Positions 17,301 through 54,959 of a stretch of DNA of 64,000 nucleotides are shown piece after piece. Below the pieces are notes generated by a model. That model made no database searches and had not been told where the DNA came from. It saw nothing but the letters and a program-made list of their open reading frames with translations. This stretch comes from Glycera tridactyla. Its lineage: Eukaryota. Numbering within the stretch: the stretch's first letter is position 1; every line of letters begins with the position of its first letter. The stretch lies in NCBI GenBank assembly GCA_965644265.1, contig OZ286464.1:46376001-46440000 (forward strand), in the 5' to 3' direction. The position numbers and the translations under genes are program-made.

Positions 17301-20300
17301 ATATCGTGAAATGTGGTATGTCGAGTGCTCGTGATGACAAAACCGAAGAAGCAACATGAGGGTTCGTGTCAGTATCAGCCTGAGTGGGAGCAGGCCCCAT
17401 GTTCAAGGACTGGATTGCAAGATGCACTTGATGCAATGTGTCTTTTTATATTGCCAATATGGGGACATATGCTGCCCTGTCCCATGTGGAGGGCAAGAAG
17501 CATCAGAAGAATCGGGCACTTCAAGCACCATGCAACTCATTGACAGCTTTTGAGATCTCTGTCAAAAATAACACCACTGTAGTCCCAGAAAGTTCAACAG
17601 AAGGCGGTCCTGACATCCCTTTGCTCCCACCACTAACTGCTGCAACAACCAATCAAGTGATGGATTTCGGTGCAAAAGTGCGATGGGTTCTTTGACTGAT
17701 CGTAAATCATCAATTGTATAATTCTTCATCTGATGCCGTGGAAGATATGTTCCCAGATGATGTTATTGCCAAGAAGTTCAAGTGTGGTGAAAGGAAACGA
17801 GCTCACCTTGCAGTGTTTGGCATTGCAGAATATCTCCTGTCTCTGCATAAAATTTGATCAATTGCTATGATGTTCGAAGAAAGCCTTAACGAAAAACTAC
17901 AACAAGAGCAGATGGATATCCATGTGCAATTCTGGAACCAAGAGTTGAACCAAGTCGTTTCATGCTACTTCGGTAGCCAACAAGTTGGTGAGTGTTTAGT
18001 TTTCCTCCCCCTTCCATTCCCAGAGTCACAAACGTCAACAGAACTCTACCTGTCTCATGACATGCATGTTATAGCCCATCGATAAAATATCAGATTTGGA
18101 GTTCTCAGCGGATAGAACATCATACATACCTAGTATTTACAATCGGTCAATCAAACTATGGCACATATGAAGCTGGGAAAAATAGCCTCCATGTTTCATT
18201 TGAGGAGAAATTCATCTTGCAGAATTGAATAAAACCCATAATATTCATGAATGTCATCAATGAGTGATAGTGATGACAGGTTAGTGGTTGGTTTCTCCTG
18301 TGCTGGTGCAAAAATCTTCATATTTTCAGTACTTATAGCATCTATCCTCCTTTTGTTTCAGGCCATGGAACTGCTGAGATGCTTGTGGACCACTTTGTGG
18401 AAGGGGTATTGGAATCAGGGATGAAAGTGGAAGACCTTATTCTAATTGGGATGGATGGTCCAAACGTCAATTGGAAATTGCATGATGATCACGACACCTG
18501 GCTGCTGAACATTGGATCATAATGGTCCACATGTCGTGCATAATAGTATCAAAGCTGGGATAAACATAACTGGATGGGATCTGTGTAGTTTGCTCGGTGC
18601 TCTCTACTACCTACTGAAGAATTCACCTGCAAGAAGATACGACTTCATGAAATTGAGTGTGGCTACCATCATTCCTTCCCAAGTTTGTGAACCAACGCTG
18701 GCTTGAAAATGTTCCAGTGGTGCAACGGGCAATTCACATTAGGGATGGGGTGGAGTTGTATGTGAAAGAGGTCAATTTAACCAAGCTTTCAGATCCCAAA
18801 AATAAATCATTCGCACTCATTCGCCAGGCGGGACAGTTCAAGATGGATGCAAACAATTGCATGATTAAGATCGATGAAAGAATGATGGCCACGTGTCCAG
18901 TCGCCTTCTCTCTTGCCTGATATCTTGCATGTCTCGAACAAGTAAGGATGGCCAACCAGCCTGGTAGCTGCGCAACGAGATTATGGAAGTTGCCGATGAT
19001 GCTTGTCCGTGCCGAGAGGGTGAAGGAGGATGAGCCTGACAACTTGATGCAGCAGTACAGCATCATCCTTGACTGCATTCCTATGTTTGGCCTAGAGAAA
19101 TTTGAGAAGTTTGATCCCTCTGCTGACAGGATAGCTGTATATTTGCAGGATTCATGTCTAGTGACAAGTATGACAAACATTATACTGTGACAAATTTGTT
19201 GTTCTGTCACATGGGTTCAGTGTGAATAAGGAAGTCATTGTGGAAAACATGAGTATTTCAAGTATTTCGGAGAAAACCCTTGGGCTAATTATACATTATG
19301 AATAGTAGCGTGTCATCTGTGATGATGTGAAGAGTGTTTGGAAGTGATGAAGGTAGATTTAACCCAGCCTCTGATGAAATCTGCTAGATCATCCAATTTG
19401 AGGTGTAATAATTATCCTGAGCTTGAACATGAGGAAAAAGAGGACTGAGGTGCAGAACAACAAAAAGAAGTGGCTGGTAGTATTTTCAACAGTAAATGAC
19501 CTCTATGAAGACCACCTCCCTACATAGGCCACTTTTTTATGCGACTGAGGGCGGTCTTTATAGAGAGGTTTGACTGTATAGTTTTTGTTCCAGCAAGGTG
19601 ATAATAGTGCAATCAGATCCAGTGATTTCCCTGAAGTTGGTTCCGTTGAATAATAGAAATCCAGTATCAATGAGGTTCGATTGGGTAGTGATTTTGTAAA
19701 TCCATATATTTTACCAGTCTGTAGGGGATTTTGATGAATCTTTTGATCCAGTGTCAACTACCATGATCTTTTTCATGCAGAGTCATACATCCAGTGAGCT
19801 GTGATTCTAGTGTGGATGATGTCTCATGATATTTCGAATATCAAATTGTAAACAGAGTTTGTGAATTTCTAGTCTGATATGATAATATGTCTCCAGCCTG
19901 CTGTGACGTGAACCATGATGTTTCTGACATGTTAGATATTTTAGTTCTCAATTTGTGTGATTTCCTGGACTGATATGATGTTTGTCCAGGGAGTGATGAT
20001 CCAAATCATCATCACAGTGTACATGTATATTTTCTAGTCTACTATGATTATGTGTCTCTAGTGCAATATGTTGTGTGATTCAATTGTAGCCAAAGAAAGG
20101 TGCTATTTTTTATCAATAAAAGTGTTTGTATAACTTGATACGGGTTCTGTTCTGAAATGTTTTGGGGATGTTCTGGAAATTATCTGGATAAAGTCTGGGA
20201 AAATCTGTTCAGGTGACTATGAACCATGTCACACACCTGATGGATATTTGATCGAAAACAGATCTGTAGAATATGATAGTCAGTAGTAGTCCTTTGCAGA

Positions 20301-23300
20301 ATATGATGGGTGGGAGTAATCCTTTGTAGAATATGATAGCCAGAGGTGATCTTTTGTAGAACATGATTGCTGGAAGTAATCCTTTGTAGAATATGATAGG
20401 TGGAAATAATCCTTTGTAGAATATGATAGGTTGGAGTAATCCTTACTAGAATATGATAGCCAGGAGTAGTCCTTTGTAGAATATGATAGCCAAAAGTAAT
20501 CCTTTGTAGAATATGATAGCCAAAAGTAATCCTATGTAGAATATGATAGATGGGAGTAATCCTTTGTAGAGTATGATAGGTGGGAGTAATCCTTTGTGGA
20601 ATATGATATCTGGAAGTAATCCTTTGTAGAATATGATAGCCAGAAGTAATCCTTTGTAGAATATGATAGCTGGAAGTAATCCTTTGTAGAATGTGATAGC
20701 TGGAAGTAATCCTCTGTAGAATATGATAGCCGAAAGTAATCCTTTGTAGAATATGATGGCCAGGAGTAATCCTTTGTAGAATATGATAGGTGGAAATAAT
20801 CCTTTGTAGAATATGATAGGTTGGAGTAATCCTTACTAGAATATGATAGCCAGGAGTAATCCTTTGTAGAATATGATAGCCAGAAGTAATCCTTTGTTGA
20901 ATATTAAAACCCAAAGTAATCCTTTGTAGACTTTGATAGCCAAAAGTAATCCTTTGTAGAATCTGATAGCCAAAAGTAATATGATAGGTGGAAGTAATCC
21001 TGTGTAGAATATGATAGCCAGGGGTGATCCTTTGTAGAATATGATAGCCAGGAGTAATCCTTTGTAGAATATTATGGCCATTAATAATCCTTTGTAGAAT
21101 ATGTTATGTGGAAGTGATTCTTCGTAGAATATGACAGCTGGAAGTGATCCTTTGTAGAATATGATGACCAGCAGTAATCCTTTGTAGAATATGATAGGTG
21201 GGAGTAATTCTTTGTAGAATATGATGGCCAGGAGCAGTCCTTTCAAGATTGACTATGTGAAAGTTATTTTTGTCTGACATAAATTGCACACCGATCCATT
21301 GAAACAACCAGTAGTGACTCACACCAGGGCTACAGGTGCAAATGACATCACAAATATTATCCATAGTTTCCAACTCTCCATAGTAACATTGAATCGGCTT
21401 CGGATATGGAATGTAATATAGGAGCGCTCACCTATATGCATTTGTGTCGTAGGCCTAGTCATATGCTTTGAGAGAATGTTGTATTCAATCTGCAGGAGAT
21501 CTGTATTGAGCCTCTGATCAGCCCACAATAGAAGTGTTTTGTAAGTAGCCCAAGGGCATGGCATGATAAATACTGCTCAGCATACATAAGCATCTACTAT
21601 AATGCATTTTCTACAGCCTTTTACATGTAATATCAACTCCCTTTCACTCTGTTGGTTAGGATTTATGTGCATAGAAATAAGGCAGAATGTCTCACATTCG
21701 CTATTTTATCCATGCTTCATCTATACGCTGTGGAACAGCTCTTGAATAGTCCCATCCTCACATGACTCCTTTGTGGATGGCATTCTGTACCAAATACTTT
21801 GGTTTGTGGTCATTTATGATTCATACCTCCCGACAAATCTTTGTGTGTTAGGTTGGCTTTCTTGAGCAGTTCCACTGTGAACCATTATCCTAATGTGTGG
21901 CTTTGAAATTCATGGAGAATTGCAGTTAGGTTTTCAAGTGAATATATATCACTATTCATGGTGTAGAATTAAACAGGCCTGAAAAGATAAGTTTTTATTA
22001 GTCTAATGCTTCTTAGGTGCTATTTGATAAGATTCCCATATAACAAAAGATGCTTCTTCCATAATTTACTTCTTATGTCCATTCTCTGAGAGACCCACCA
22101 TGAGTATGTGCCCAGGCTTCACACAGACTCTGGAAATGTTCTTGAAATTTCTGCACATGCAGGAAATGTTCTGGAAATTATACTTTTCACACAGGCGTTC
22201 TGAAACATAGTGGAATGTTGGGATTTGTGATCTGGAGATCACACCCAAGTTGTGGAAATCAGCAGAAACCAGTCGATTTCACTGATTGACATGAACAAAC
22301 CTCATTCAGGCATTATTCGTTCTGATAGATTACGAAATGACCAGAAAGATATGCAGATAAGCCCCATGATAGAGAATGTCAGAAAACTATAAGTAGTTCA
22401 GAAATACAGTGAAACCTGCGACGAAAGACCACCTCCGACGGGATGGCGCTTCTCAAGGGCAGCTTTTTTATTTGACATAGTCAAATATACCTCTGACGAG
22501 AGACCACCTCCTTCGAGAGACCGCTTTAGGGCGGTCTCTCATTGCAGGTTTCACTGTAGTGCCTCTTGTCACTTGTCTTGTTGCTGGCATTAAAACAGGT
22601 TTCGCACAGACTCTACAAATGTTGTGGAAACCACTACCTATACTGGAAATGTTCTGAAAATCATGTTCTGCACTCTAGTGTTCTGGAAAAATACTGGATT
22701 TTTTTTTATTTTGTTCTGGTAATCTCTTCCATTTTCTGGAAATCAGCAAAAACCTGTTGATTTCACTTGTTTTTGCTGGAGAATGATTCACACTTTAGGC
22801 GGTGATAGCAGAGGGACCACCAAGATGTGCAAATGAATGTAAAAAAAAATCATGATTAGTTGAAACATACTGCCTCTAGTCACTGGTGCTGCACATATAA
22901 ATATTAAGAATCACAAATGTTCCTGCAGCATTCAATTAAAATACCATGATCGAATTATTGACTATTTGTGTCTTGTATTTTTGAAATTCTTTCGGGTGTA
23001 CTGGAAATGTTCTGGAAAAACTCTGGATTTTTTTTCTTAAGAAGGCTGTATGAATGATTATAAAAAGAAATCGCCATTATTGATGCAAAATTCATTTATA
23101 AGACCATGGGTAAATGCTATGTGTTCCGGAAATTTTCTGGGGTGAACTGGAAATGTTCCGGAAAAACTGTGTTTGTTCATCGGAAGTCTATGTGAACCAT
23201 GGTGCCACAGTGCCCACACCTGCTTTTCAATTGATACCCTTTCATGGAATGTTAAAACAGGATGGAGCATGAGAATGAAATTCATTCTACCTTTCACTTG

Positions 23301-26300
23301 TACATTTCTTTTTATCTTTCTCCGGTTTGGGCTTGAGATTCTGTTGTGTGCAATTTCATCATGAAAAGCCATAGAATATTCCTTCACATATGATGTCATG
23401 AGGTGATATCTTGTCTGTTATGAAGTGAACTGCTCCATTACATTATTTGCCATACAGTCATTGTTAAGTACATGAACAAGTTGAATGCATGTTCAATTTG
23501 TACAAGATTGAGTTGGATCAATAGCATGAGTCCATTATGGTTGTAGTTCGATATTCGATATTGTGATTGCATTTTCACATGTGATCTCATAGTACGGAGG
23601 ATCATATTGACTCTGTTTATGATGCAGTACGTTTTTATTTGCTAGATTGGTCGTTTGGAGTCATCAGCTCAGCAGATGCAGATGAATATGGCGGCTGATA
23701 CCCAACGGGCTCAGACAGAATTGGTCAAGGCTGAGGAACAGACTAAACTGGTTGAGGTAGAACTCACTGAGTCAAATAGAAAATGTGAGAGCCTCCAGCA
23801 GACTCTCTCTGGCAAAGAGGAACTAATTGGAAAAAATGAGGCTGAACTACGGGGAGCTAAAGACACCATCAATCTGAAAATTGAGGAGGTAAGCGAACAA
23901 TTTTCAGGTGATCCGTTCTAGTTGTTGATTTCAGTTGCTTGACTTGTGTAGGGGCAATCGATTCGCCGGTACACCGATGTTCCTGTGTGCTTTATAAATC
24001 AATTCAAACTACAAAGTGACTATGATCCAAATTTACTGCCTTGATCATGAAATCAGCGCATGCGCATCAACACAGAATTTGGTTATCTTGCTGTCATGTG
24101 ACATCACACCACCTCTACATTCCCCTCCACACAACCTGTCCTGTACAGCTATGATCTTTTTCACAAAGAGCCTTCACATGTCTCATACCAACTATAGTTT
24201 CTCCTCCCATCTCAAAAAAACCATGGATCAGTGTTGATGTCTTAGAATACATGATACAATATGCCTGGTCGAAAAATTGTCTATCAAATAACAGTGTGTT
24301 GTTGCTTTCAACGTCAGAGGATGTTGATATGAACTTCTATTTGTTCTATCATTATATGATGTCTCATAATGGGTCCTCATTTTGTTTCGAATTTATTTTC
24401 ACAGATTGAGCGTCTTGAAGGTGTTGTACGTGAACTTCGTATGAATGTATCCAATCTTGAACGTGATCATCGCCAGGCAGAGAATCAGGTAGGTTCACAG
24501 TGTCCTTCCATTCAGATTACCCGGTACCCTTGATAGATTAGCATTTTAGCTATAGTTAATCCGTGAGGTCAAATGCTAAAGAAGAAAAAAATCATCTGCC
24601 TGAATGATTTGCTAAAACAAAATGTTCATTCCTAGTCGGACAAAGGTGGTGATGCTTTATTGTAGCTGAACATTTTCCTAATTTCATTGGTTTTGATGAA
24701 AATTTGCAATAGGAGAATAATAAATAAGAATGCCATCAATTTTCTTACTGCTGAACTGATTCAATGAAATGCTTTCTAGTTGTCAACAAATTACTTTCTG
24801 AATTGCAAAAATTATTTCCATTTTGCTAAAATCATTCGCTAAAAGATATCTCATCCTAGAGGAATCCCAGAATATTAAAGTTTGGTTCATCACTGTATTG
24901 AATCAGTTATGGAGGTCAGAAAGAGCATGAACTGCACTCCTCTTTCATCCACTCGAAAATTCATTAGTGCCAAGACACCCTCATATAAATGTGTTGAGGT
25001 TGAAATTCGGGCAATTGTGGTTGATTTGATTATTTTTGGATCTCTGTTTTTGAATGTCCACCTGTATTGGTCGTTTTCAGATTGGAGATTTACAAACGGA
25101 AGTAGAACATCACAAATGTCAGCTAACAGAGGCAAGAGGAAATTACAAGGAATGTGCACAGGAGGTAAGCATGAATATTTCTGAACTTGCTATGTCAGAG
25201 ATCTTTCAATAGGCAACATTATGTCAATGGAGAACAGAATATGAGAAACAAATCACAACCATCACAATTTAAGAGCAAAGATTACTATCACTAGGCCAAC
25301 AATAGAACATATCACATCCATGTATAATGTGATTCCCGAAAGTTCATACTTTTCTTATTGATACATGGGTGATACTACCAATCTACCAACTCTAACTCTA
25401 CAAAAATATGTCATTTTTACCTCGTCTCAAAGAAGTTGAGGGGGGTATTGCGGTCACTCCGGCGTCGGCGTCAGCGTCGGCGTCCTCATCTGCGTTAAGG
25501 TCAGCGTTAAGGTCATGTTGAAGTCCCTTTGCTAAGCAACTAGAGGGCCTAGCTCCATATAATTGAGCACACATATACTTCAGTACATTTGCTATTGAAT
25601 CCAGCCATCATCAAGGTGCCATCTCAATGTTCTGCTTGACTAATTTTGGGTTGAAACTTGTGTTTTCTGAAGTGATGGGACTCTGTCATTGGGGGCAATG
25701 TTGAAGTCATGTTGAAGTCACATTGCTCAGCAACTAGAGTGCCCAGCTTCATGGAATTTGGCATGCATATACTTCAGTACATCTACTAATGAATCCGGCC
25801 ATCATCAAGGTAGCATCCCAGTGTTCTGCTTGATCAATTCTGGGATGAAAATTGGGTTTTTGGAAGTAATGGGACTTAGCCATCTATGAGCTATTTCTGA
25901 TGATCTGATTTATTCATGTTCAGTTTGCAGTTGATTCTCCACATGTGTCTTTATCCCCTGTGATTGTATATTGCCCATGGAAGACTGATATATGTGCGAG
26001 ATGGTGATTTTGGGGCAAAAAATCACTTTTTTGAAATGGATGAACTTGGTCATTTCTGGTTAGTTTTTCAGTACCCAGCCACCCCAAACTTGATACAGAG
26101 GGATCTCATAGCATTCCTTAATGAATGCGAGTCATGAATGGGGTCTCCCAAGAGGCCTGGTTCGTTTTGGGGTGAAAATTGGTTTTTCAGAAATGGATTT
26201 TTCTAAAGATGTTGGCCGTCCGTAGGCACACCATACTTGGCATAGATGCAGTTCATAGCATTCCCTAATGAATGCTAGCCATAGATGGGGTCCCCCAACA

Positions 26301-29300
26301 GGCCTGGTCGGTTATGGGGTGAAAATTGTTTTTTCAGAAATGGATTTTTCTAAAGAAGGTGGCTGTCCATAGACAGTCCAAATTTGGCATGGATGCAGTT
26401 CATAGCATTCCTTGATGAATGCTAGGCATAGATGGAGTCTCCTAATAGGCCTGGTTGGTTTTGGGCGGAAAATTGTTTTTTCAGAAATGGATTTTTCTGA
26501 AGAAGGTGGCTGTTCATAGCTACACCATACTTGGTACAGATGTACTTGATAGCATTCCCTAATGAATGTTTGCCGTAGATAGGGTCTCCCATTAGGCCTG
26601 GATGGTTTTGGGGAGAAAATTGGTTTTTCAGAAATGGATTTTCCTATAGATGTTGGCTGTCTGTAGCCTCAGCAAACTTAGCATGGAAGTAGTTCATATC
26701 ATTCCCTAATGAATGCTAGCCATAGATGGGGTCTCCTAACAGGCCTGGTTGGTTTTGGGGTGAAAATTGCTTTTTCAGAAATGGATTTTTCTAAAGAAGG
26801 TCGCTGGCCATAGCCACACCATACTTGGTACAGATGTACTTGAAAGCATTCCCTAATGAATGCTAGCCATAGATGGGGTCTCCCATCAGGCCTGGTGGGT
26901 TTTGGGGTGAAAATTGTTTTTTCAGAAATGGTTTTTTCTAAAGAAGGTGGCTGTCCATAGACAGTCCAAATTTGGCATGGATGCAGTTCATAGCATTCCT
27001 TGATGAATGCTAGCCATAGATGGAGTCTCCTGACAGGCCTGGTTGGTTTTGGGGTGGAAATTGCTTTTTCAGAAATGGATTTTTCTAAAGAAGGTCGCTG
27101 GCCATAGCCACACCATACTTGGTACAGATGTACTTGATAGCATTCCCTAATGAATGCTAGCCATAGATGGGGTCTCCCATTAGGCCTGGTTGGTTTTGGG
27201 GTGAAAATTGCTTTTTCAGAAATGGATTTTTCTAAAAGAAGTTGGCTGCCCATAGCCACACCATACTTGGTACAGATGTACTTGATAGCATTTCCTAATG
27301 AATGCTAGCCATAGATGGGGTCTCCCATTAGGCCTGGTTGCTTTTGGGGGTGAAAATTGCTTTTTCAGAAATGGATTTTCCTAAAGAAGTTGGCTGCCCA
27401 TAGCCACACCATACTTGGTACAGATGTACTTAATAGCATTCCCTAATGAATGCTGGCCATAGATGGGATCTCGACTGGTTGGTTTTGGGGTGAAAATTGT
27501 TTTTCAGAAATGGACTTTTCTAAAGATGTTGGCTGTCGTAGCCACTCCAAACTTTGTACAGATGAACTTTATATCATTCCCTAATGAATGCCAGCCAGGG
27601 ATCAGGGTTCCTGACAATGCTGATCGATTTTTGGGACAAAAGTGGATTTTCAGAAATGGATTTTTCCTAAAGATTGTTGCTGCCCCTTGCCACACACTAA
27701 ACTTGACACATATGCCTTTCATAGCATTCCTTCATAAATGCCTGCAATGGATGGGGACCGATGACAACCTTGCTTGATTTTGGGGACAAAAATGTAAATG
27801 TTAACCAGACGTGACTTCTCATGAGCATCAGCAGATGGATCCAACCTTCGTTTGAAAATTGATTTCCACAGCATGAGTTGGGTCATCTATGCGTTACATA
27901 TATTCGAGGCATCTGAGTTGGCTTCATTGAGACGAGGTCCGCCTTCAGTGAAGGCTATGTTTGTAGAGTTAAAGTTGGTAGGGGTGTCTGAACCATCAGC
28001 TACTTCCACTTGACAACCTTTCTGGTTCCCCATCATCTTGTGTTCAGGGTTTGTGAGAGTGTTGTCTGCAGGGGAGAGAACATCAAACTTTCATTAACCA
28101 GGAACACACGGCATACATAATCCTGTGGGTTGATACATGCCGTTAAGCCTCAAACAAACAAACAAAACACTCAGATAATTTGCATTGTTGCCTTTCTTAT
28201 TCATGAAAAAAAAGGGCATTTCTCCACATTCACTATTTTTCACATTCATTGTGAGTTGCTAAAGATTTCTTCATTTAATTTGTACATCACTATGCAGTGA
28301 TAACTTCTCAAAGCTGTACGATTTATTTCTTCTGAATGCATGTGTGTTGATCAATACTCATTTGTGATATTCCCAATGTTTTCACCCCTATCATGCATTA
28401 TGATCGCATTGTTTGCAGCTCGCTCATCATGAAGAGAAGGTTGTTCTCCTGGAACACAGCATTGCCAGCACCCAGGAGCAGCTGTCTGCACGAGTTGCAG
28501 AAGGCGTTCGTCTTGAACAAAACATCCGCCGTCTCACTACCGAGGTCAACACATTGACTGAACGATGTGGCTCAAATGATGAGGAAATTAGCCAACAGAG
28601 GTCACTGATTGACAAGTTACGGAAGGACGTACTTGCTGCGAAGGAGGAGACTCACGCTGCTATTCAGGAGGGTATGGCATACAAGCAGCAGGGATCTAAA
28701 TTCGCCGTCGAGCTCGAGGGAGCACGTGATCAGGAACGTATGCTCACCGAGCAAATTGAGCAACAGGACACCTTACTTGCACAACTCCAGCAGGAGTTGA
28801 AGGATGAACGCGCAAGGCAACAAGAAACCAGTGATGGTCTTACGCAGGCCAAGAAACTTGTGTCAGAACTTCAGGATGAGATTGACCGACTCCAACGTCA
28901 GCTCCGTGACTCTACAAATAAAGTAAGTACCGGTAGTTCTCGTCAACTTAATTTTATATATATATGCTGCCATTGCAGGGCAAGAAGTTTATGCTCTTGG
29001 CTTACAAGCCTAATCAGACAAATATGACCCCCCAATTTTCCATGATCAGTTAAAAATATTCTTGACTGGTTTATATGAATTGCCCCAGAAATGCATGTAG
29101 TTCATTTGCCAGTCCACAAATTTTGCCTGCATCAGCCGAGAGGGTAACTCTCCACATCATTATTGATTATCGGACATGAAAGTGGACCTAGATGCAGGCA
29201 GTTCAGGACTGAAATCCATTGGAATATCACACTACAGTCTTGAAAGATGTCAGTCCAACAGCATGATTGCACTCTTCTGGAATTGCATGTGGGCATTATT

Positions 29301-45850: not shown

Positions 45851-46317
45851 TACCTATTCGTATTGGTTGAAAACGGGTGTTAGTATGACTACAAAGACTA
45901 GGCTGGAGATCCATAAGTAATGACAAACCCCATAGATATAGACTTGTATGGCTCTATTAATAAGTCAGTTACATATTTCAGTAAGCTGCCTTTGGTGAAT
46001 TGCCGATTCTCCCACGACAACCGCCAAAATCTGGTGGAGATCGGGGGTTGGAGATTGTGCCGATCTCCCACGCTGACGCAACCGGGCGATGAGGCCAGTT
46101 TTCGGCATTGCCGCTGGGTTGCGCTTCACTATTTTGCGCGAAATACGTTTTTTTGTATGCGAAGATGTTTCTCACACTGATACCGTTTCTGTCGAAAATA
46201 TGGCGAATATGAATGAACTAATATCATGAGAAATCCGTACATATAATTTCCTTTCATTATTACCCATATCTTGATCATTTTCGTGAATAAAAAAGATAGA
46301 AATGTAACATAGAGATA

Positions 46318-46325
46318 GCGATCTG
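46318..46325. repeat. Left target-site duplication GCGATCTG
   Basis: Identical to 54406-54413 and abuts the TIR. Confidence 0.9.
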
Positions 46326-46510
46326 GGGATAACTTCAGAACACGGTCCTTACGTTGAATACAACGAAGTGGCTGCAATAATGGCTGCCTACCCTAATAAG
46401 AACTGTGTTTCTAGATTACTATATTAATTTGTCTTCGCGTGAGGGGAAAATCACCCCGGGGAAGTCTGCAGCCATGTTTGCAGCCACTTCGGCAGCCACC
46501 TTCGAATTCA
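46326..46510 (+). repeat. Left terminal inverted repeat of the Merlin element (imperfect, ~185-200 bp)
   Basis: Aligns to the reverse complement of ~54205-54405, including a perfect 22-mer GGGGAAAATCACCCCGGGGAAG (46443-46464 vs 54255-54276). The inner boundary is approximate. Confidence 0.85.
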
Positions 46511-46689
46511 CGCTTGAAATGTTCATGAAATGTACCAATTTCATCCTGTACGATGTTCATATGACATCTGCACCAACTTTAAAACAAATAAAATGGAAGT
46601 TATAAAGTGTAACTATTGTTTGTTATTCTTACCTTTTGTTGTTTAAGTCTTTAACTTGTTTTATATCGTAAAATCCATCGAACAATTGT

Positions 46690-46865
46690 TCTCATGACAT
46701 CGCCCTGACCGCCATTTTGTTACGCGCAATGATATTTCTCGCGGAATCTCGTTGAACGTGAGTACGTTGCCGGGGGACTACTTTACCGCTTGATGTCGCT
46801 AGAATCGAATTTTGTGATCATTTTCGCGCTTCGAAGATTTCAAAAGTGAAACCAACACGGTACGT
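46690..46865 (+). promoter_or_regulatory. Putative cargo promoter/5' leader, CpG-rich, with a YY1-type motif
   Basis: CCGCCATTTT at 46709-46718, dense CpGs, and a GTACGT donor-like site at 46860. Confidence 0.35.
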
Positions 46866-46868
46866 GTA

Positions 46869-47228
46869 ATGGCGCCTGATCGATATGCATTTGCTTGGTT
46901 GTTAATTCAGGATTTGATAGGGAATGCAAGTAAATGGCCTTTGCACATTAGAAGATGTTTCTGGACAAAAAACATAAAGTATGCTGATCGAATGATTGTC
47001 GCTGCGTTCGTATGGACTAATGGACTAGATCCTGAGATATTTATGGACTGGGTCCATTTGTATGGGATGGCACGTGATGAGGCTGCAAAGAAGCATTTAT
47101 GGAGCCTATTCAATGATTTCGCAAAGGGAAATCACTACAATCTGTACGCTTACAACGTCACCAAGAACAATTACGAATATTTAGATGGCAGAAAAAGATA
47201 CTATGAACACAAATCAACAAGAAAATAG
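46869..47228 (+). CDS. Cargo ORF A, 119 aa, unknown helical protein (possible primase large-subunit CTD/PriX-like fold)
   Basis: ATG-initiated, globular aromatic-rich composition, downstream of a CpG-rich promoter-like region inside the TIRs. The fold resemblance is by eye only. Confidence 0.6.
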   Translation: MAPDRYAFAWLLIQDLIGNASKWPLHIRRCFWTKNIKYADRMIVAAFVWTNGLDPEIFMDWVHLYGMARDEAAKKHLWSLFNDFAKGNHYNLYAYNVTKNNYEYLDGRKRYYEHKSTRK

Positions 47229-47291
47229 TAAGTTTATTTATCGTAATTGATGAACCATTTGCTGTAATATACATTTTTTTTTCAGGTGAAA

Positions 47292-48035
47292 ATGACATAT
47301 CTTGGGTACAAAACTATATATGGGCTTCCCTACGTAAGGAACAAATTTCATCCAAGCGACCCAACTGCAAGAATATACTCTGCCAACCAAGAAGAAGACC
47401 TTATTTTCAAACCATGGCAGTTGTTCTTGGACTTGAGAGAGTGTTGTGCACGATATTCATGTGTGAGAAATCTGCAAGATTACCCAACAAGATTGTGTAA
47501 TATGGATCTTGTAGAACTTTGTCAACTGGAATTTGAAACAGAAAAACCGAATGGGTTCTGCAATGGATGTTCCCTGATGCAACCTTCGTTTGATTCCTAT
47601 ATGTATGCAAACATAACTATGATCAACAGATTGAAAAACTGGATGAGAACCACACAAACATGGCATGAAATTTCAACAGAAAGTGAATTATCGTTGGTTT
47701 TTGTCAGTATTCAAGAGAGGAAACTGCAGAGGTATGGTGGCGATAACTTAAGGAGGAACGTGGTAAATACTCCGGTGGTGCATCCATACCATAACTGCAT
47801 GAGAATAGGTCATCAGACATTCAGGTTTAAGCCAAGGAATTGTGATTTGAAGTTTCTTCTAACGCAAATAATTGGTGATAAAGCATGCATCAAACAGTTG
47901 GATGAGGACATAATGTTTAAAGGACCATTTCATTGTCGTTGTGCTGATGATTTCGTTTCTCCTGATTCATACTTTGGACTCAAAATCAACAATCAAAATG
48001 ATCTTCCAGACATTCTCCCCCCCCCCCTTCCCTAA
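47292..48035 (+). CDS. Cargo ORF B, 247 aa, Cys-rich unknown protein
   Basis: 744-nt open frame preceded by a T8CAG acceptor at 47285; Cys clusters CCARYSC, FCNGC, HCRC. Confidence 0.55.
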   Translation: MTYLGYKTIYGLPYVRNKFHPSDPTARIYSANQEEDLIFKPWQLFLDLRECCARYSCVRNLQDYPTRLCNMDLVELCQLEFETEKPNGFCNGCSLMQPSFDSYMYANITMINRLKNWMRTTQTWHEISTESELSLVFVSIQERKLQRYGGDNLRRNVVNTPVVHPYHNCMRIGHQTFRFKPRNCDLKFLLTQIIGDKACIKQLDEDIMFKGPFHCRCADDFVSPDSYFGLKINNQNDLPDILPPPLP

Positions 48036-48711
48036 TTTACGTGAACAAATTGGGAAAGTTCCTGTGCACAGTGTAAATGTTCAAGAAATGCCAACGTCAA
48101 CTGTTGTTCGATCACAAATACATCCTTCTCCATTATGTGCTCCATCTGGATTTCTTTCTACCAACAATTTGTCAATGGATCTTCCCGACTTGAAATGTTC
48201 ATTGTCACCAACATCATCACCAATACCATCACCATATGCTGCAACAACAACAACTGAAAATAAACAAACAACACCAACATTTACTATTAAATGCACAGAC
48301 ATGTCGTCAACACTGCTAAGTGGACATTTTCCATCTCAACCAGAACAATCATTTGAAATTCCAAATATGATGTCTTCGCCAGTGGCTCAAAGTACACCAA
48401 AAGAAAGAGGAGGTTATGATTCACCAATTCCAGCAAGTGGTGTTGTAGTTGAAAAAATGTCATCATCATCATCTTCAAATTTATCTCTACTTGATTCATC
48501 ATTCTACAACGAGTACATGTTCAACAGTATCCAGAATGTTGACAATCACTCCACAAGCTACTCCTTCAATATGAGCAACAGCCAGACATCAAATATTTCA
48601 GATTCATCATGCTTCATAACATCTGTGGTTGGTTTACGTAAAAGGAAGACGCGTACATGGGATGATGATGTTATTGTTTTACCTAACTCCGAAACAGATG
48701 ATACAGTTTGA
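47941..48711 (+). CDS. Cargo ORF C, S/T/P-rich low-complexity region with basic patch RKRKTR; probably the C-terminal half of ORF B
   Basis: 771-nt open frame in AT-rich DNA, overlapping the end of ORF B in the +1 frame across a C11 run (48017-48027). Confidence 0.5.
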   Translation: MLMISFLLIHTLDSKSTIKMIFQTFSPPPFPNLREQIGKVPVHSVNVQEMPTSTVVRSQIHPSPLCAPSGFLSTNNLSMDLPDLKCSLSPTSSPIPSPYAATTTTENKQTTPTFTIKCTDMSSTLLSGHFPSQPEQSFEIPNMMSSPVAQSTPKERGGYDSPIPASGVVVEKMSSSSSSNLSLLDSSFYNEYMFNSIQNVDNHSTSYSFNMSNSQTSNISDSSCFITSVVGLRKRKTRTWDDDVIVLPNSETDDTV

Positions 48712-49539
48712 ATGAGTAAGTTAATGACTGTAAAAAGATATTATGTTCATTTTGTTATCAGGGATATATGAATTTTAATATTTTATATTTTATGATGCAG
48801 ATAAAAACAGGGAATTCCATAAAAAAAAAAGTGCGCCTACGTCATCAAACACATGGGGCTTCCCCTTAAAAAAATGCGTCTACGTCATTATTTTCGATGA
48901 TTTCTTTGAACGATCGACCCGCCACTCTGTGTTGATATCGAGAACTTGTAGTTCCTTCATTTCCGCATAACGTGCTAGAAACGGAATATACGTGACTCTC
49001 TGCGTTTACAGGTGAAGCTAATAGTTCTCGCCAAATCCGATAGCTGCAAATGTGGCTATACATTAGCGCCTCTTGCGACAAATAGACTAAACTAATAATT
49101 CAGGATAATAACGTTAGGCTTATTTGCAGAATCGGTACACATAAAATATCACACACCTAGTGCTTTCATGAAGAACTAATAGTTTAATTTTCATCCGAAG
49201 GCCGCAAGTGTGTATAATCCGTATCACCTCTTGTGACAATGAGACTGAATTATTAGTACATAATATTAACGTTAGGATTTTTTAACTAAAATTACTCATA
49301 TATATGATCACGCACCTGGTGATTAAACTGGTAACCATGAATCAACATTTCCAAACATGATAATTTAGATAAAAATAATGGAGGTGAGCACAAAATGATC
49401 TAATATCGTTTATTATATCTTTGATATAAATTTAAACCAAATATACATCACAATGTGGACAATCACTTTATATTTTTTAATTACAAGATTAAATATGTGA
49501 ATTTTCAAGGACATTATTGTGAAGTTAAAGAATAATGTG

Positions 49540-50877
49540 GTCCTCACATCTACTCCTTTTTTTTTGAGGACCGTGTTATGCAGTTAATCCCACCAGCAAA
49601 ACACCAAAATGCGGTCCTCAGATTTACTCCTCTCCATAAATTACTCCTATCCGTGATCATTATTATATTGAATGATAAAAATAATTTTAACTTGTTTTTT
49701 TTTGTACAATTTCATGCAGTTACGAGATGATATTGAATAATAGGAGTGAATTGTTGTTGGTAAAAACATGATTTTTTGAGGACCGTGTTACGTAGTTAAT
49801 CCCACCGGTACCACATCAAAATGCGGTCCTCAGATTTACTACTCTCCATAAATTACTGTATGATATTGACGGAAAGGATCATAATTCAGGAGTAGCATTA
49901 TTGTATTGTACATGCAATTTTTAGATTAGGATATCATTGGATCATACTTGTTTTTTGCGGTCCTCAAATTGTTTTTTTTGAGGACCGTATTATGTTAACC
50001 CCACCAGAGCTACATCAAAAAGCGGTCCTCAAATTTACTTCTATCGGTTAATTGATTTTATCATATTGAAAATAGAAATGCGGTCCTCAATTTTTTTTTC
50101 TTGAGGACCGTATTATGCTGTTAACCCCACCAGGGGTACATCAAAATGCGGTCCTCAAATTTACTCCTATCCTTTAATTGATTTTATCATATCGATGGAT
50201 AGGAGTAGAGTAGGAGTAGGAAATTTTAAGAGTAGAACATTAATGGATCACACATGAAATTTTTAGGACCGTATTATGCTGTTAATCCCACCAGTGCTAC
50301 ATCAAAATACGGTCCTCAGATTTACTCCTATCCGTTAATTAATTTTATCATATTGACGGATTGGAGTAGAATAGGAGTAGGATATTTCAAGATTAGAACA
50401 TTAATGGATCACACATGAATTTTTTAGGACCGTATTATGCTGTTAATCCCACCAGTGCTACATCAAAATACGGTCTTCAAATTTATTCCTATCCGTTAAT
50501 TACTTTTATCATATTGACGGATAGGAGTATGAGTGAATTTACCCCCCCCCCCCCCCCCCCCAGTGCTACATCAAAATACGGTCCTCAAATTTACTCCTAT
50601 CCGTTAATTAATTTTATAGTATGAGTGAATTTACCCCCCCCCCCCCCCCCCCCCCCCACTAGTGCAAAATACGGTCTTCAAATTTACTCCTATCCGTAAA
50701 TTAATTCAATCATGATGACGGATAGGAGTATGAGTGAATTATTTGGTCTGATATGACATTAACAGATAGGAATAAAATTAAGAAGTATGATATTATTTGA
50801 TATTATATGTTTTTTTGCGGTCATTAAATTCTTTTTTTTCCGTTAATTAATTTTATCATATTGACGGATATGAGTGA
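49540..50877. repeat. Degenerate tandem array (~8-9 units) of double-hairpin motifs inside the Merlin element
   Basis: Recurrent TGAGGACCG...CGGTCCTCA and TACTCCTATCCGT...ACGGATAGGAGTA inverted pairs, around a shared core TTAATCCCACCAG..ACATCAAAA. Confidence 0.85.
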
Positions 50878-52314
50878 AACTTAGGAATTGAATATTACGA
50901 AAGTAATACTAAAGTTGTGAAATGTATTTAAGAGGTTATTTATTGGTTTCAGATGGACGAGAACAAGTTAGAAGCCCATGCGTGGTCGTACATTCGATGG
51001 AGGTGAGTGATATATATGACTTGAAAATCACTAAAAGCTATGGGGACTCCATCAGTGAAGTTGCGCCTACGTCATCATATGAGGAAATCCCTCGTCTACT
51101 GACGCGACACTCAGCGGCAAAGTAATAAATTTCTAGTTACTCACCTTCCGCTTGGGGGAAAATCCGATATCACTGTCACATCTCTGCGGTTCAGTTATGC
51201 ACTGGTGTTTCATCTTTTGTCCGCTAGGCGCTAACTCGAAGCGACGGTATCGCATCCCCGTGAGAAAATGAAGAACTTATGAATCCTGTGTCAACCGCTA
51301 GGCTTAACCTCGAGAATACATGTTCGCATCCCCGTGACGAACTGAAGAACTTTTAGTGAAGGCAGATGACGCTAGTCATTGACAATTTCTCTGAAGAAAA
51401 AATAGTTAAGACTATGATTACTATCTGCACCACACCTAAATGAATCAATAACGCAATCACAATCACTGCCACCAATAACACCATGAATACAACACACTAA
51501 TAAATTATACAGATGATTATATTTTCCTAAAATGACATAATATTTCTTTTATTTCAGAGTGATTTCCTGAAGTTTTTCCATCGTTTTCCGGACGTTTCAA
51601 GAGATGCAATATTTGTCTTCTGGATACAGTCTCTCAGCATCGATATGCGGAAGTATTTTGAACGGAACATTCGATCAACATTTATATTCAGCCATCAAGA
51701 AGCATCCAAGATTTCTCGTATCTGACTTACAATTTTCAGATGGAAAAAAATATGTGTTTCTGACGTTTTAAGTGATTCAATATTTGTCATATCAATACAA
51801 CCCCATGAAACAAATAGCAATGACAGTATTCAATGTGTTAATAGAAGCTGGAGTCACTTAAAAAGCCATATTAATGTCGAATATATGTGATTTTTTTTCA
51901 CCTGCATGACAATTTATATCAATGGCAATATCAACGGGTGTCGGGTTTATATTTTTTATATGGGATTTAACAAGATATTACTGTATGAAAATTACGGGAT
52001 TTTGGATTATGTTCCATAGTACTTTGTGGCAATGGATTCAATATTGGATGTCGTTTTTTTTTTCTCTATTTGGGCATTTAAAAATAGTTTGTTTTTTTTA
52101 AGGTGACATAAATTTGTGGCAATGCACCCAGTATCAGATGTCGTTTTTGTTAACTAGGATGTTAAATATTAAGACTGTGATAAATATGGTTTTTTTTCCT
52201 TGTACATAATATATTGTGGCAATGCACCTGTAATCGGGTGTCGGGTTTATTACTATTTTTTGGGTATTTCTTAACTTATGATTATGAGTGTGTGTGTGTG
52301 TGTGTATTTTTGGC

Positions 52315-52345
<31 letters not shown>

Positions 52346-52692
52346 AGATGTAATACTTCATATACTTTTATATATTGTTTATGTGAGAATAATATTTATT
52401 CAACAGGTTATTCACTGAATTAAATAATTCTTACCTGCAGTTATTCCGTGTTTCTTTATTACTGGTTGTGAACATCCTCAAAAGTATGCAATGCCATTTC
52501 AGATAGAACAATGGCGCACGAATAACTCTCCTGTTCCAGTGTATGAACGTAGTCCTCTAACATGTGTCCCTTCGTAACTGTATAATTTAAAGTATGATGC
52601 ATGCCATTTCAGTACGTAAATCCAACAATACATGTACGACGGTCAAATTATTTACAAGACATAACAAGTATGTACAACTCCGAAAAATGTTT

Positions 52693-53643
52693 TTAGAAGT
52701 GAATGTTAGGCATTTCTGCAAGCACCTCAGCTGGCAGATCCAAATTCCTCACATTGTAATACCTTCCCATCAGTTCCAACAGGTCCTCGAAGGTGTCTCT
52801 TCCCTTATTGTTCCATCTGTATTGTATCTCCTTCAAATATGGTCCAAGTCGATCTCTCCTAACACCATGCATTCTCTTGATTGCCAGTTTGGCATTCCCC
52901 CAGAACCCTTCCATAGACTGGGTATGTGCCTCTTCATCATCTGGATCAACATAGTCCTCAGCATGACAGACTGTTTTGTGAGTGTAATTGTTTCTATGTA
53001 CAGAAATTCCATTGTATGCCCTCCACTCATCCGAAACAATTGTGGTACCAGGTGCTATCATATCCTCAATGGCACCTATGAACACCTCAGCTGATCTGTT
53101 TTCGACTTGCCTCAAAAGGACCTTTTGAGTATCTCTTTGTATAGCTCCAAAGATCCATGGATCATTTGGTGGATGCCTTCCTCTGTGGTATTTTGCTCTG
53201 CCACGCCATAGACTTTCATCTATTTCAACAGTCGTGCCTGGCCCTCCAAGTCGATCTTCGTTTTCGTCGACATTTCGCCACATTAGATCGCGAAACAAAT
53301 TGTACCAATCGGTCACTGAGTGTTCGCACACAACCCCGTTGCACATTCGGGACACTACATTAATCGCAATGTTTCTAGCAAAGAAATATAGCAGCATTAT
53401 GAAGTAACGAAATTCCATTTTTTGTTTCGACAGAAACGATCCATCACGTATGGATTTCCGACCTTTACACAAAGGACATTTAAAAATGTATCCATCTATT
53501 TTCCTTTGTCTATACCTCTCCTGACGCATCCAAACTTCACAACCATTGCAGTATTGTCCTTTTTTTAGTATGTTCTTTTCACGTAGAAACAATATAGAAT
53601 CTTCTCTGGTTCTAGTCCTCTCAAAGACACTCCATATGTCCAT
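52693..53643 (-). CDS. Merlin/IS1595-family DDE transposase, uninterrupted ORF (316 aa from ATG 53643)
   Basis: N-terminal Zn-ribbon (CNGC...CPLC...RKSIRDGSF). Catalytic motifs GTTVEIDES, KYHRGR, WIFGAIQR, TTIVSDEWRAY, HKTVCH, HTQSMEGFW. No stops or frameshifts. Confidence 0.92.
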   Translation of the reverse strand: MDIWSVFERTRTREDSILFLREKNILKKGQYCNGCEVWMRQERYRQRKIDGYIFKCPLCKGRKSIRDGSFLSKQKMEFRYFIMLLYFFARNIAINVVSRMCNGVVCEHSVTDWYNLFRDLMWRNVDENEDRLGGPGTTVEIDESLWRGRAKYHRGRHPPNDPWIFGAIQRDTQKVLLRQVENRSAEVFIGAIEDMIAPGTTIVSDEWRAYNGISVHRNNYTHKTVCHAEDYVDPDDEEAHTQSMEGFWGNAKLAIKRMHGVRRDRLGPYLKEIQYRWNNKGRDTFEDLLELMGRYYNVRNLDLPAEVLAEMPNIHF

Positions 53644-53689
53644 CGTGGAGACCGCAGAATTCAAAACTGAAAGTGTTAACCGCGAAACG

Positions 53690-53743
53690 GTCACGTGATC
53701 ATCTTGCGCCTGGTCACGTGACAGCAACGACGGCGTTGATTGG
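53690..53743 (-). promoter_or_regulatory. Putative transposase promoter: two GTCACGTGA E-boxes and a CCAAT box
   Basis: GTCACGTGA at 53690-53698, GTCACGTGAC at 53713-53722, and ATTGG at 53739-53743 (CCAAT on the minus strand), 50-100 nt upstream of the ATG. Confidence 0.45.
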
Positions 53744-54204
53744 TCAAGAGTCTACCTCGCTAAATCACACTGAAGTCATTGAATGATTCGTTATGAAAAC
53801 AAAAACAAAGAATATATCTATAACTAGAAGTATTCAAGTATTTCTAGATATATATGACAAATAATAAAGCATAATAATACATTTTAAAATGTTAGTAACC
53901 AAGGAACTACTTCGTTCCGCGCAAGCTCACGCATTCTTCTTGAAGCCGATTCACTCACTTCCGCTTTGCACATTTCTTGTTTTGGAATGGATACGATAAC
54001 GCGACACACACAACTTTCAGGTAATTTATTAGAATTACACCTTACGTATAACATTTTTCGTTCCGATATTGTGTGCGCACACTAACACATAATACATAGT
54101 TTCAATTGTGCTCAATTATAGTTCACTGAAGCATGTAATCTTTATAAAAAAACATATTTTATGTGATAAACAAAGACCACCAATTCCATTTCGTCATGTG
54201 TTTG

Positions 54205-54405
54205 ACATGTATTCTAAAGTGGCTGCTGAAAAGGCTGCAATCATGGCTACAGACCTTCCCCGGGGTGATTTTCCCCTTACGCGAAGGGAAATTATCACAG
54301 TTAATTTATACATTCGTTCCTATTAGGTCAGGCAGCCACTTCTGAAGCCTTCTTTGAAGCCTTCTTCGAAGCTTTATATAAAGGACCTTGTTCTGAAGTT
54401 ACCCC
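54205..54405 (-). repeat. Right terminal inverted repeat of the Merlin element
   Basis: Reverse complement of the left TIR; the inner boundary is approximate. Confidence 0.85.
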
Positions 54406-54413
54406 GCGATCTG
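54406..54413. repeat. Right target-site duplication GCGATCTG
   Basis: Identical to 46318-46325 and abuts the TIR. Confidence 0.9.
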
Positions 54414-54959
54414 TGAGTGTATATGACCCTAAAATAGAAACCAGTTGGACGCTGCCTGGGGCTTTGACATCGAACAGACCTGCTGCTACTGCTGCTTATT
54501 AAAAAGCACTAGTGCGACCTATTTCAGACCATTTACATCACAAATTATGTCGTGGGAGAAAAACAAGAACCAGAGAGCGTCGGGGATCGCCACAATCTCC
54601 AACTCGGCCTGCGGCCTCGTGACGATCAACGCCGCTGGCGCCTGCCTCGTTGGAGATTGTGGCGATCCCCGACGCTCTTTGGTTCTTGTTATAATGTTGT
54701 GAGGATGTGATCTGTGTGTGCATTTAGAAGTCAAGCCAAAATCTGCCTCAAGTTGGCAGAGCACACATTTTTAAATCAATCTGGCAGCACAGACAACACC
54801 TCACAGCCATGTACAGTGACGCTTCCCATTGGCTGCTACGATCACCTGGGATGATAATGAATATACATGATACTTGCATTCAGATCTTCTGAGCATGATC
54901 AGACATGAAGAGTGATACTGATGATCCTTGACATGGGTATCTGTCATCTCAGATGAATT

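Follow-up and report, generated by a model that had tools for sequence, protein, structure and literature searches.

Introduction

Merlin/IS1595 transposons have ends that start with GG, an 8-bp target site duplication and a DDE_Tnp_IS1595 transposase, and internal tandem repeats occur in many of their families, for example a 163-bp unit in Symbiodinium Sy.k_F2 (PMC8101967; this and the other published systems are cited from the portions of each article available to us). In that portion, Merlin repeats are treated as passengers (proto-satellites), and neither fixed tip-to-tip spacing nor conserved cargo genes form part of the account. The element analyzed here shares the ends, duplication and transposase, but it has both the fixed spacing and the cargo genes, and its repeat units appear to be made of its own ends.

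Two ends joined across a short spacer are found in the IR-IR junctions of IS30 (PMC9333248) and of ISCth4 of the IS256 family (PMC7780238). As far as the available portions describe them, the tips of these junctions are intact, and the junctions are short-lived and set off rearrangements. The ISCth4 junction has a spacer of 6-8 bp, the element also makes 8-bp duplications, and its integration is less efficient from joints with poly-C/G spacers (PMC7780238). The joints reported here, in contrast, have decayed tips and a C-rich 4-bp spacer, and they are stable, multiplied and internal. Tandem dimers of the P element and hobo likewise contain a head-to-tail end junction that can be expanded by unequal exchange, with a spacer that is the full 8-nt duplication and a unit that is the element itself (PMC5932611, available portion). 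In our case the ends are 4 bp apart, and a piece of about 146 bp from inside the element is repeated.

Extra transposase-binding sites that favor the movement of long elements are found in the binding arrays of hAT and CACTA transposons and in the Mu enhancer; the hAT and CACTA sites are subterminal, whereas the array described here is central. In the Sleeping Beauty 'sandwich', extra uncleavable ends increased transposition of a 7.5-kb cargo 3.7-fold (PMC4229213). The putative role of the present array, uncleavable transposase sites favoring long elements, would be similar, but the sandwich sites are engineered and those found here are natural, central and paired tip to tip. Furthermore, Hsmar1 is regulated via competition for end-binding sites (PMC3936726), and a bacterial primase-polymerase is reported to act on copy-out elements (10.1101/2023.06.07.543989).

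Results

The array is carried by a Merlin transposon

The window, i.e. the whole 64,000-nt stretch of Glycera tridactyla DNA analyzed here, contains a transposon of 8,080 bp (46326-54405) with an 8-bp target duplication, and this element hosts the array (Table 1). Elements were assigned to Merlin by inverted repeats of 24-462 bp beginning with GG, an 8- or 9-bp duplication and a DDE_Tnp_IS1595 transposase with a DDE triad. The host element has all three defining features and is a Merlin. Its residues D142, D205 and E245 were conserved in 12/12 aligned transposase sequences. Beyond the 24-bp core of the left end, imperfect inverted similarity runs on for about 185 bp. The consensus of the element end, derived from 63 ends, is GGGRTAACTTCAKAACAVGGTCCT, with G at position 1 and at position 2 in 62 ends each. 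An 8-bp duplication at 7/8 identity or better was observed in 25 of the 30 two-ended copies, and two of the remaining five look shifted by one base. The gene content is limited to the transposase, ORF A and ORF B+C, without viral replication genes. A short palindromic element with 52-bp arms lies just outside the right end (54562-54690), and a related piece lies outside the left end (46047-46074).

Table 1. Features of the array-bearing Merlin element, in window coordinates.
Feature	Position	Strand	Remarks
Left 8-bp target site duplication	46318..46325	+	GCGATCTG; identical copy at 54406-54413
Left terminal inverted repeat core	46326..46349	+	24 bp, begins GG
ORF A	46869..47228	+	119 aa; weak likeness of its helical fold to primase large-subunit C-terminal domain and to small CRESS-DNA-virus proteins
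ORF B+C	47292..48711	+	One frame, about 420-500 aa in most copies; frameshifted here at C-run 48017-48027
Doublet of CRE-like CTACGTCA and kappaB-like motifs	48810..48890	+	43-bp spacing; conserved across subfamilies
Array	49508..50877	.	About 9 units, each with two end-like halves around a 4-bp spacer, then second inverted motif and AT-rich tail
Junction J1	49565..49620	.	Halves 49567-49590 (-) 20/24 and 49595-49618 (+) 16/24 vs element end
Junction J2	49777..49832	.	Halves 19/24 and 17/24 vs element end
Junction J3	49979..50031	.	15/24 and 16/24; 3-bp deletion in 5' half
Junction J4	50102..50207	.	19/24 and 17/24; then complete second inverted pair
Junction J5	50263..50368	.	18/24 and 17/24; then complete second inverted pair
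Junction J6	50424..50529	.	18/24 and 16/24; then complete second inverted pair
Half junctions J7 and J8	50542..50730	.	C-runs instead of 5' half; perfect second pair 50685-50730
Merlin transposase	52693..53643	-	Intact, 316 aa; DDE_Tnp_IS1595 E 3.5e-25; D142, D205, E245
Right terminal inverted repeat core	54382..54405	-
Right 8-bp target site duplication	54406..54413	+	Same letters as left copy

The initial annotation had described units with a 9-bp inverted pair around a conserved loop of about 38 nt, most of them followed by a 13-bp inverted pair. The motifs and positions it quoted are correct and the array is present in the sequence. TGAGGACCG occurs four times and CGGTCCTCA eight times in the 64-kb window, all of them inside 49565-50587 and far above chance. 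The first pair is perfect with the 38-nt loop in three of nine units (49565, 49777 and 50102), and the rest deviate. The pair at 49979 is perfect at 35 nt, those at 50263 and 50424 are near-perfect and the last three units lack the 5' arm. C-runs, which were said to replace this arm in later units, do so in two (50542-50561 and 50634-50657). The second pair is complete in only 4/9 units (50162-50207, 50323-50368, 50484-50529 and 50685-50730) and so does not follow most of them; the last of these is indeed perfect, the sole such case among the nine. Successive units are spaced by 212, 199, 126, 161, 161, 108 and 93 bp. The window also contains two other tandem arrays, a 147-bp unit repeated 11.5 times at 26077-27756 and a 30-bp unit repeated about 33 times at 20265-21243.

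Units resemble two element ends placed tip to tip

Judged from its sequence, the first 'hairpin' is better described as a pair of degenerate 24-bp element ends that stand tip to tip across a 4-bp spacer. What had been taken for a conserved loop then consists of this spacer and, on each side of it, the outer 17 bp of a transposon-end copy. All 12 halves of J1-J6 in the window are identical to the element end at 15-20 of 24 positions. For counts across copies, junction pairs were admitted if the 16 arm bases contained no more than one mismatch. The arms were 38 bp apart, equal to a 4-bp spacer, in 176/184 pairs; the eight with other spacings were excluded from later counts. In the 17 positions outside the selection arms, the two halves of these 176 junctions matched the end at 10.5/17 and 9.3/17, compared with 4.4 and 4.3 for shuffled sequences. 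When up to 7 mismatches in 24 were allowed, seven internal end-like sites were detected in the 8-kb element and none in 55,870 bp of flank. A matrix derived solely from seven sister-family ends placed all 24 subfamily half-site majorities in the top 111 of 111,692 flank windows, and seven of the 24 outscored every flank window. At five loci without a true left end, the best end match in that part was an array unit. The spacer itself reads CACC in 127/176 junctions and CACT in 26/176.

The half-sites are not conserved evenly. Positions 7-8, 10-12, 14-15 and 18-24 are largely retained, and positions 3-6 are decayed. The terminal bases of both halves are degraded among the 90 distinct junctions: in the 3' half G1 is present in 29% and positions 3-6 match the end in 0-40%, and in the 5' half position 4 matches in 6%. 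In other DDE elements the inner end bases bind and the outer bases direct cutting. By analogy, since the inner bases are kept and the outer ones decayed, the array halves look like bindable but uncuttable ends. Elements that end at an internal junction tip were not found and the half-sites stay within element loci, a search that rare events would escape; none of the inspected deletion and mosaic breakpoints lay at a junction tip. Because active IS30 joints start rearrangements (PMC9333248), a stable internal array would need dead tips, and dead tips are what is observed.

Other derivations of the units were considered. In a mini-element, the unit would be a deletion derivative of its host; the sequence past the half-site is, by eye, unlike the host subterminal DNA, and no unit stands alone. 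A tandem dimer produced by double insertion would leave an 8-bp duplication between the ends, and the spacer here is 4 bp, barring a later loss of 4 bp. With respect to self-targeting, the flanks of 29 insertion sites contained nothing array-like except one match with seven mismatches. We also likened CCCACCAGGG to the CTCF motif, a reading that was dropped because subfamilies S2, S3 and S6 do not retain the G-run.

Sequence is conserved in the stems, base pairing is not

Folding z-scores of the array ranged from -4.2 to -10.4 in 8/8 segments. Such strong folding energies follow from the inverted sites and are no proof of a conserved structure. Compensatory stem changes, proposed by the initial annotation as a check, were absent: 500/500 shuffles reached the covariation score of the 90 distinct junctions. 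In this set 73.1% of cells were paired compared with 74.8% in shuffles, two-sided changes affected 14 cells compared with 38.8, and position 13 was unpaired in 88/90 junctions. RNAalifold kept only six pairs, with no two-sided change and a covariation term of -0.01. In the second motif, 41/194 of the 3' arms have no partner. The center of hairpin 2 contained A-T in 30, T-A in 3, T.T in 23 and A.A in 9 of 70 cases, so that mismatch is commoner than compensation. Since the stems lack covariation, it is the sequence that is conserved and not the pairing. A search of Rfam returned seven matches at E <= 5 (best E 0.087), none at the gathering score.

A structured RNA source, one of three functions originally proposed, is thus not supported. 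In this reading, a non-coding transcript of the plus strand would contain an intron from which small or structured RNA is cut. In 4/4 segments folding is stronger for the plus than for the minus strand, T.G juxtapositions recur (60/90 in hairpin 1 and 57/70 in hairpin 2), splice-like sites flank the window array, and an exon-like segment lies downstream in several subfamilies. With covariation lower than in shuffles, no Rfam family at the gathering score, and an upstream donor motif in just 8/13 representatives at scattered distances, we consider an RNA source very unlikely.

The splice-like sites around the window array comprise a donor-like site at 49384 and an exon-like segment at 50953-51002. 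The segment past the array measures 47-59 nt in several subfamilies and starts with ATGG, with no kept reading frame. A putative plus-strand transcript across the array would run antisense toward the 3' end of the transposase.

The array is confined to one Merlin clade

All data come from this one genome (2.04 Gb, 207 contigs). A DNA search gave at least 121 matches, falling into at least 36 loci. We analyzed these 36 loci, including the window, together with one further copy at 66% identity and one distant copy. A transposase of 59-100% identity lies beside 34/36 loci; the remaining two loci contain remnants of this element. When patterns were searched in the whole genome, 335/336 matches of the junction pattern fell inside 36 copies or remnants of one Merlin clade. 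All 14 matches of the perfect second pair lay inside element loci, as did 155/156 and 127/128 matches of the half-site patterns, the two outliers being isolated and chance-like. The confinement of the array to these loci therefore holds beyond the candidates of the initial search.

At least one junction is kept in 29/30 copies with both ends; the copies that have ends and no array are L072 and the decayed L101. These results support the array as part of the Merlin element and as a conserved cis-element. The initial annotation had named an independent dispersed satellite or MITE, present outside Merlin copies, as the case that would speak against it. Because the genome-wide matches are confined to element loci, the array is not of that kind. 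The junction pattern gave no match in metagenome contigs. Among the transposase relatives there, three at 44-48% identity lie on contigs of 1.2-2.2 kb, which are too short for an array, and the rest have 23-34% identity.

Conservation between subfamilies

The number of junctions per copy ranges from 1 to 10. The commonest unit periods are 146 bp (40/140 intervals) and 148 bp (14/140). Periods of 146-148 bp make up 57/140 intervals and are near the nucleosome core length, which may be coincidence. We compared seven subfamily representatives. In 19/21 pairs, identity is 22-44% at four-fold sites of the transposase and 66-92% across the 38-bp core. Thus synonymous sites between subfamilies are saturated, yet the core is conserved. 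In 20/21 pairs the alignable span is 0-23% for other central non-coding DNA and 35-92% for the array, a contrast that is overstated as repeats align more easily. Invariant junction positions match the host end in 18/23 cases, as do 6/11 variable positions, a difference that is not significant (Fisher p = 0.23).

At five invariant junction positions the array and the host end carry different bases, and where subfamilies switch between G and T at end position 13 the array shows no matching change. Because three of these five bases, A13, T16 and G17, occur in true ends of sister families, the sequence suggests an old or cross-family origin of the array. Mosaic elements were also identified (L046-L049; G000 C7, C26, C13 and C31). 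Their left arm is 97% like the window copy and is accompanied by a 147-bp piece of its array, the remainder with array and transposase comes from another subfamily, and the breakpoints are not at end tips. Exchange between subfamilies could therefore inflate the apparent conservation.

The array might instead be a neutral relic, an old end-to-end joint that grew to a passive minisatellite and was kept uniform within and between subfamilies by gene conversion and unequal exchange. According to the available part of PMC8101967, many Merlin families have internal tandem repeats. Unit number and period vary freely, the mosaics show that exchange occurs, and plain microsatellites occupy the same position in sister families. 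Against this, the 38-bp spacing is fixed although the tails gain and lose tens of bases, subfamily-specific variants stand alongside invariant columns, and the neighboring non-coding DNA cannot be aligned. We regard a purely passive array as doubtful.

Cargo genes and nearby motifs

For the primase large-subunit C-terminal domain we applied the criterion of a helical fold shared with photolyase/cryptochrome. The predicted model of ORF A (pLDDT 87.6) had the primase large-subunit Fe-S domain as its top solved structure (Z 5.4, rmsd 3.8, 92 aligned), a score tied with cryptochrome and unrelated helical bundles. Foldseek of the model against the PDB gave no match at E <= 0.001. Small uncharacterized proteins of Circoviridae/Cressdnaviricota were closer than primase (TM 0.62-0.67, E 1e-3 to 2.5e-3). 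At the level of predicted models, this hints that these transposons and circular ssDNA viruses have shared genes.

ORF A has no catalytic primase domain. The primase large-subunit C-terminal domain contains four conserved cysteines for an Fe-S cluster, which are missing in some archaeal forms; no conserved cysteine was present among the invariant or near-invariant columns of 32 ORF A sequences. The description as primase-like cargo therefore stands weakly, for the fold of a non-catalytic domain, and fails for catalysis. Its position beside the array had been called suggestive. As ORF A is also present in array-less sister families, the two are not obligatorily linked.

Pfam searches with ORF A (single sequence and 32 members) and with ORF B/C gave nothing above cut-off, and searches of the PDB by sequence gave nothing significant. 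For ORF A, a word-index search returned no homologues and a profile search returned 720 clusters at E <= 0.001; only one of ten clusters looked up was named, as an uncharacterized protein of Mytilus coruscus. A single weak partial match was found among viral contigs. ORF B+C has a Cys/His-rich N-terminal domain and a Ser/Thr/Pro-rich tail, and the model of ORF B found no fold match (best Z 3.9). The stop of ORF A and the start of ORF B are separated by an intron-like GTAAGT ... TTTCAG segment (47228-47285); with this segment removed, only a few bases would lie between the two frames, as in a message with two genes.

The motif GCGCCTACGTCAT followed by GGGRNWTCCC, motifs that we liken to CRE and kappaB sites, forms a doublet at exactly 43 bp. 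Its orientation varies, it can lie to the left or right of the array, and it recurs in 8/13 representatives: the window (48810-48890 and 51055-51095), L042, L047, L059, L062, L064, L071 and L074. From these motifs an immune- or stress-responsive promoter is possible.

The ORF A data bear on a priming or origin function. The element would then be single-stranded during a copy-out or circular step, its paired motifs would fold, and ORF A would bind them and recruit host primase to make the second strand. The first-ranked fold of the ORF A model and its likeness to CRESS proteins agree with this, and the junction geometry is like that of copy-out/paste-in intermediates as given in the available part of PMC7780238. 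Both strands also fold well, and several sister families have inverted (TGAG/TGAC)n tracts at the same place. We nevertheless judge such a function unlikely: the stems lack covariation and the second motif has many unpartnered 3' arms, a Z score of 5.4 is not distinctive, ORF A lacks a catalytic domain and invariant cysteines, and it is present in families without any central repeat (L092, L094 and L095).

Sister families and element length

Sister Merlins (42-52% transposase identity, up to 7 kb long) have ORF A, ORF B or both. Internal end-like arrays were not found in them, with at most one site in each of 17 elements (three more distant). The (TGAG/TGAC)n tracts occupy the same central place in sister families L080, L082-L088 and L115, and form inverted arms of about 300 bp in L082 and 145 bp in L087. 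Short sister families of 3.7-4.3 kb have no central repeat.

In a search with the end pattern, all 25 end pairs of the array clade were at least 4.1 kb apart. Microsatellite-type sister families likewise yielded no short derivatives (15/15 end pairs at least 4.3 kb apart). A sister group without central repeat had nine short end pairs (0.9-1.1 kb) alongside six long ones; 4/4 short pairs checked have 8-bp duplications and they are 96-99% alike. This pattern fits a need of the long families for central DNA in cis, and does not single out the array as that DNA. The contrast in length is only suggestive, because the array-less families of the microsatellite type also lack short derivatives. A non-autonomous Merlin family of 0.9-1.1 kb (L202-L205 and five more G000 sites) has GGCGTA ends and internal copies of subterminal sequence.

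Discussion

We propose that the array consists of worn element ends set tip to tip, which likely serve as uncut transposase-binding sites and aid or damp the movement of long elements. Based on the sequence comparisons, we assign this reading a probability of about one half. The first unit would have been born as an end-to-end joint, either a circle junction or a tandem dimer, in this lineage or in a sister family, and would have multiplied through unequal crossing-over. The inner positions 7-24 would be under selection as a double-stranded protein-binding site, with the element's own transposase as the putative binder. The effect may be enhancer-like, by loading the enzyme in cis, or that of a sink that soaks up enzyme. 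A different protein, encoded by the element or by the host, likely binds the second inverted motif. It speaks against transposase sites that sister families move without an array. Of the three functions suggested in the initial annotation, origin, protein-binding array and RNA source, the protein-binding array appears to fit best.

The same annotation drew a parallel to baculovirus homologous regions. These are repeated imperfect palindromes in AT-rich DNA, which lie at several loci of a genome that encodes replication factors. In the present case there is one array per element and no viral replication genes, and the likeness is superficial, as the palindrome consists of two transposon ends.

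A further scenario combines several of these features. The element would belong to a copy-out circle lineage, as the bacterial IS3, IS30 and IS256 elements do, and the array would be a domesticated circle junction with a 4-bp spacer that acts as a transposase-loading and priming platform, aided by a primase-subunit-like helper that circular ssDNA viruses have as well. We consider this combination quite improbable. If true, a DDE transposon of a eukaryote would replicate through a circular stage and bring its own helper for priming.

Internal tandem repeats of Merlin elements are already known; units derived from an element's own abutted ends were not found described in the available portions of the literature. 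A search of open-licence PubMed Central and bioRxiv returned no report of such units or of their conservation.

To our knowledge, the ways in which Merlin/IS1595 elements cut, join and control themselves have yet to be established. This young clade, in which the 316-aa transposases are intact and the copies nearly identical, has a conserved internal array of its own abutted ends and provides direct substrates for asking whether the enzyme binds ends tip to tip, whether 4 bp is the junction length, and whether internal uncleavable ends help long cargo. If the proposed binding function is true, the array would be a natural counterpart of the engineered 'sandwich' design, and some intra-transposon repeats would be working parts rather than passengers.
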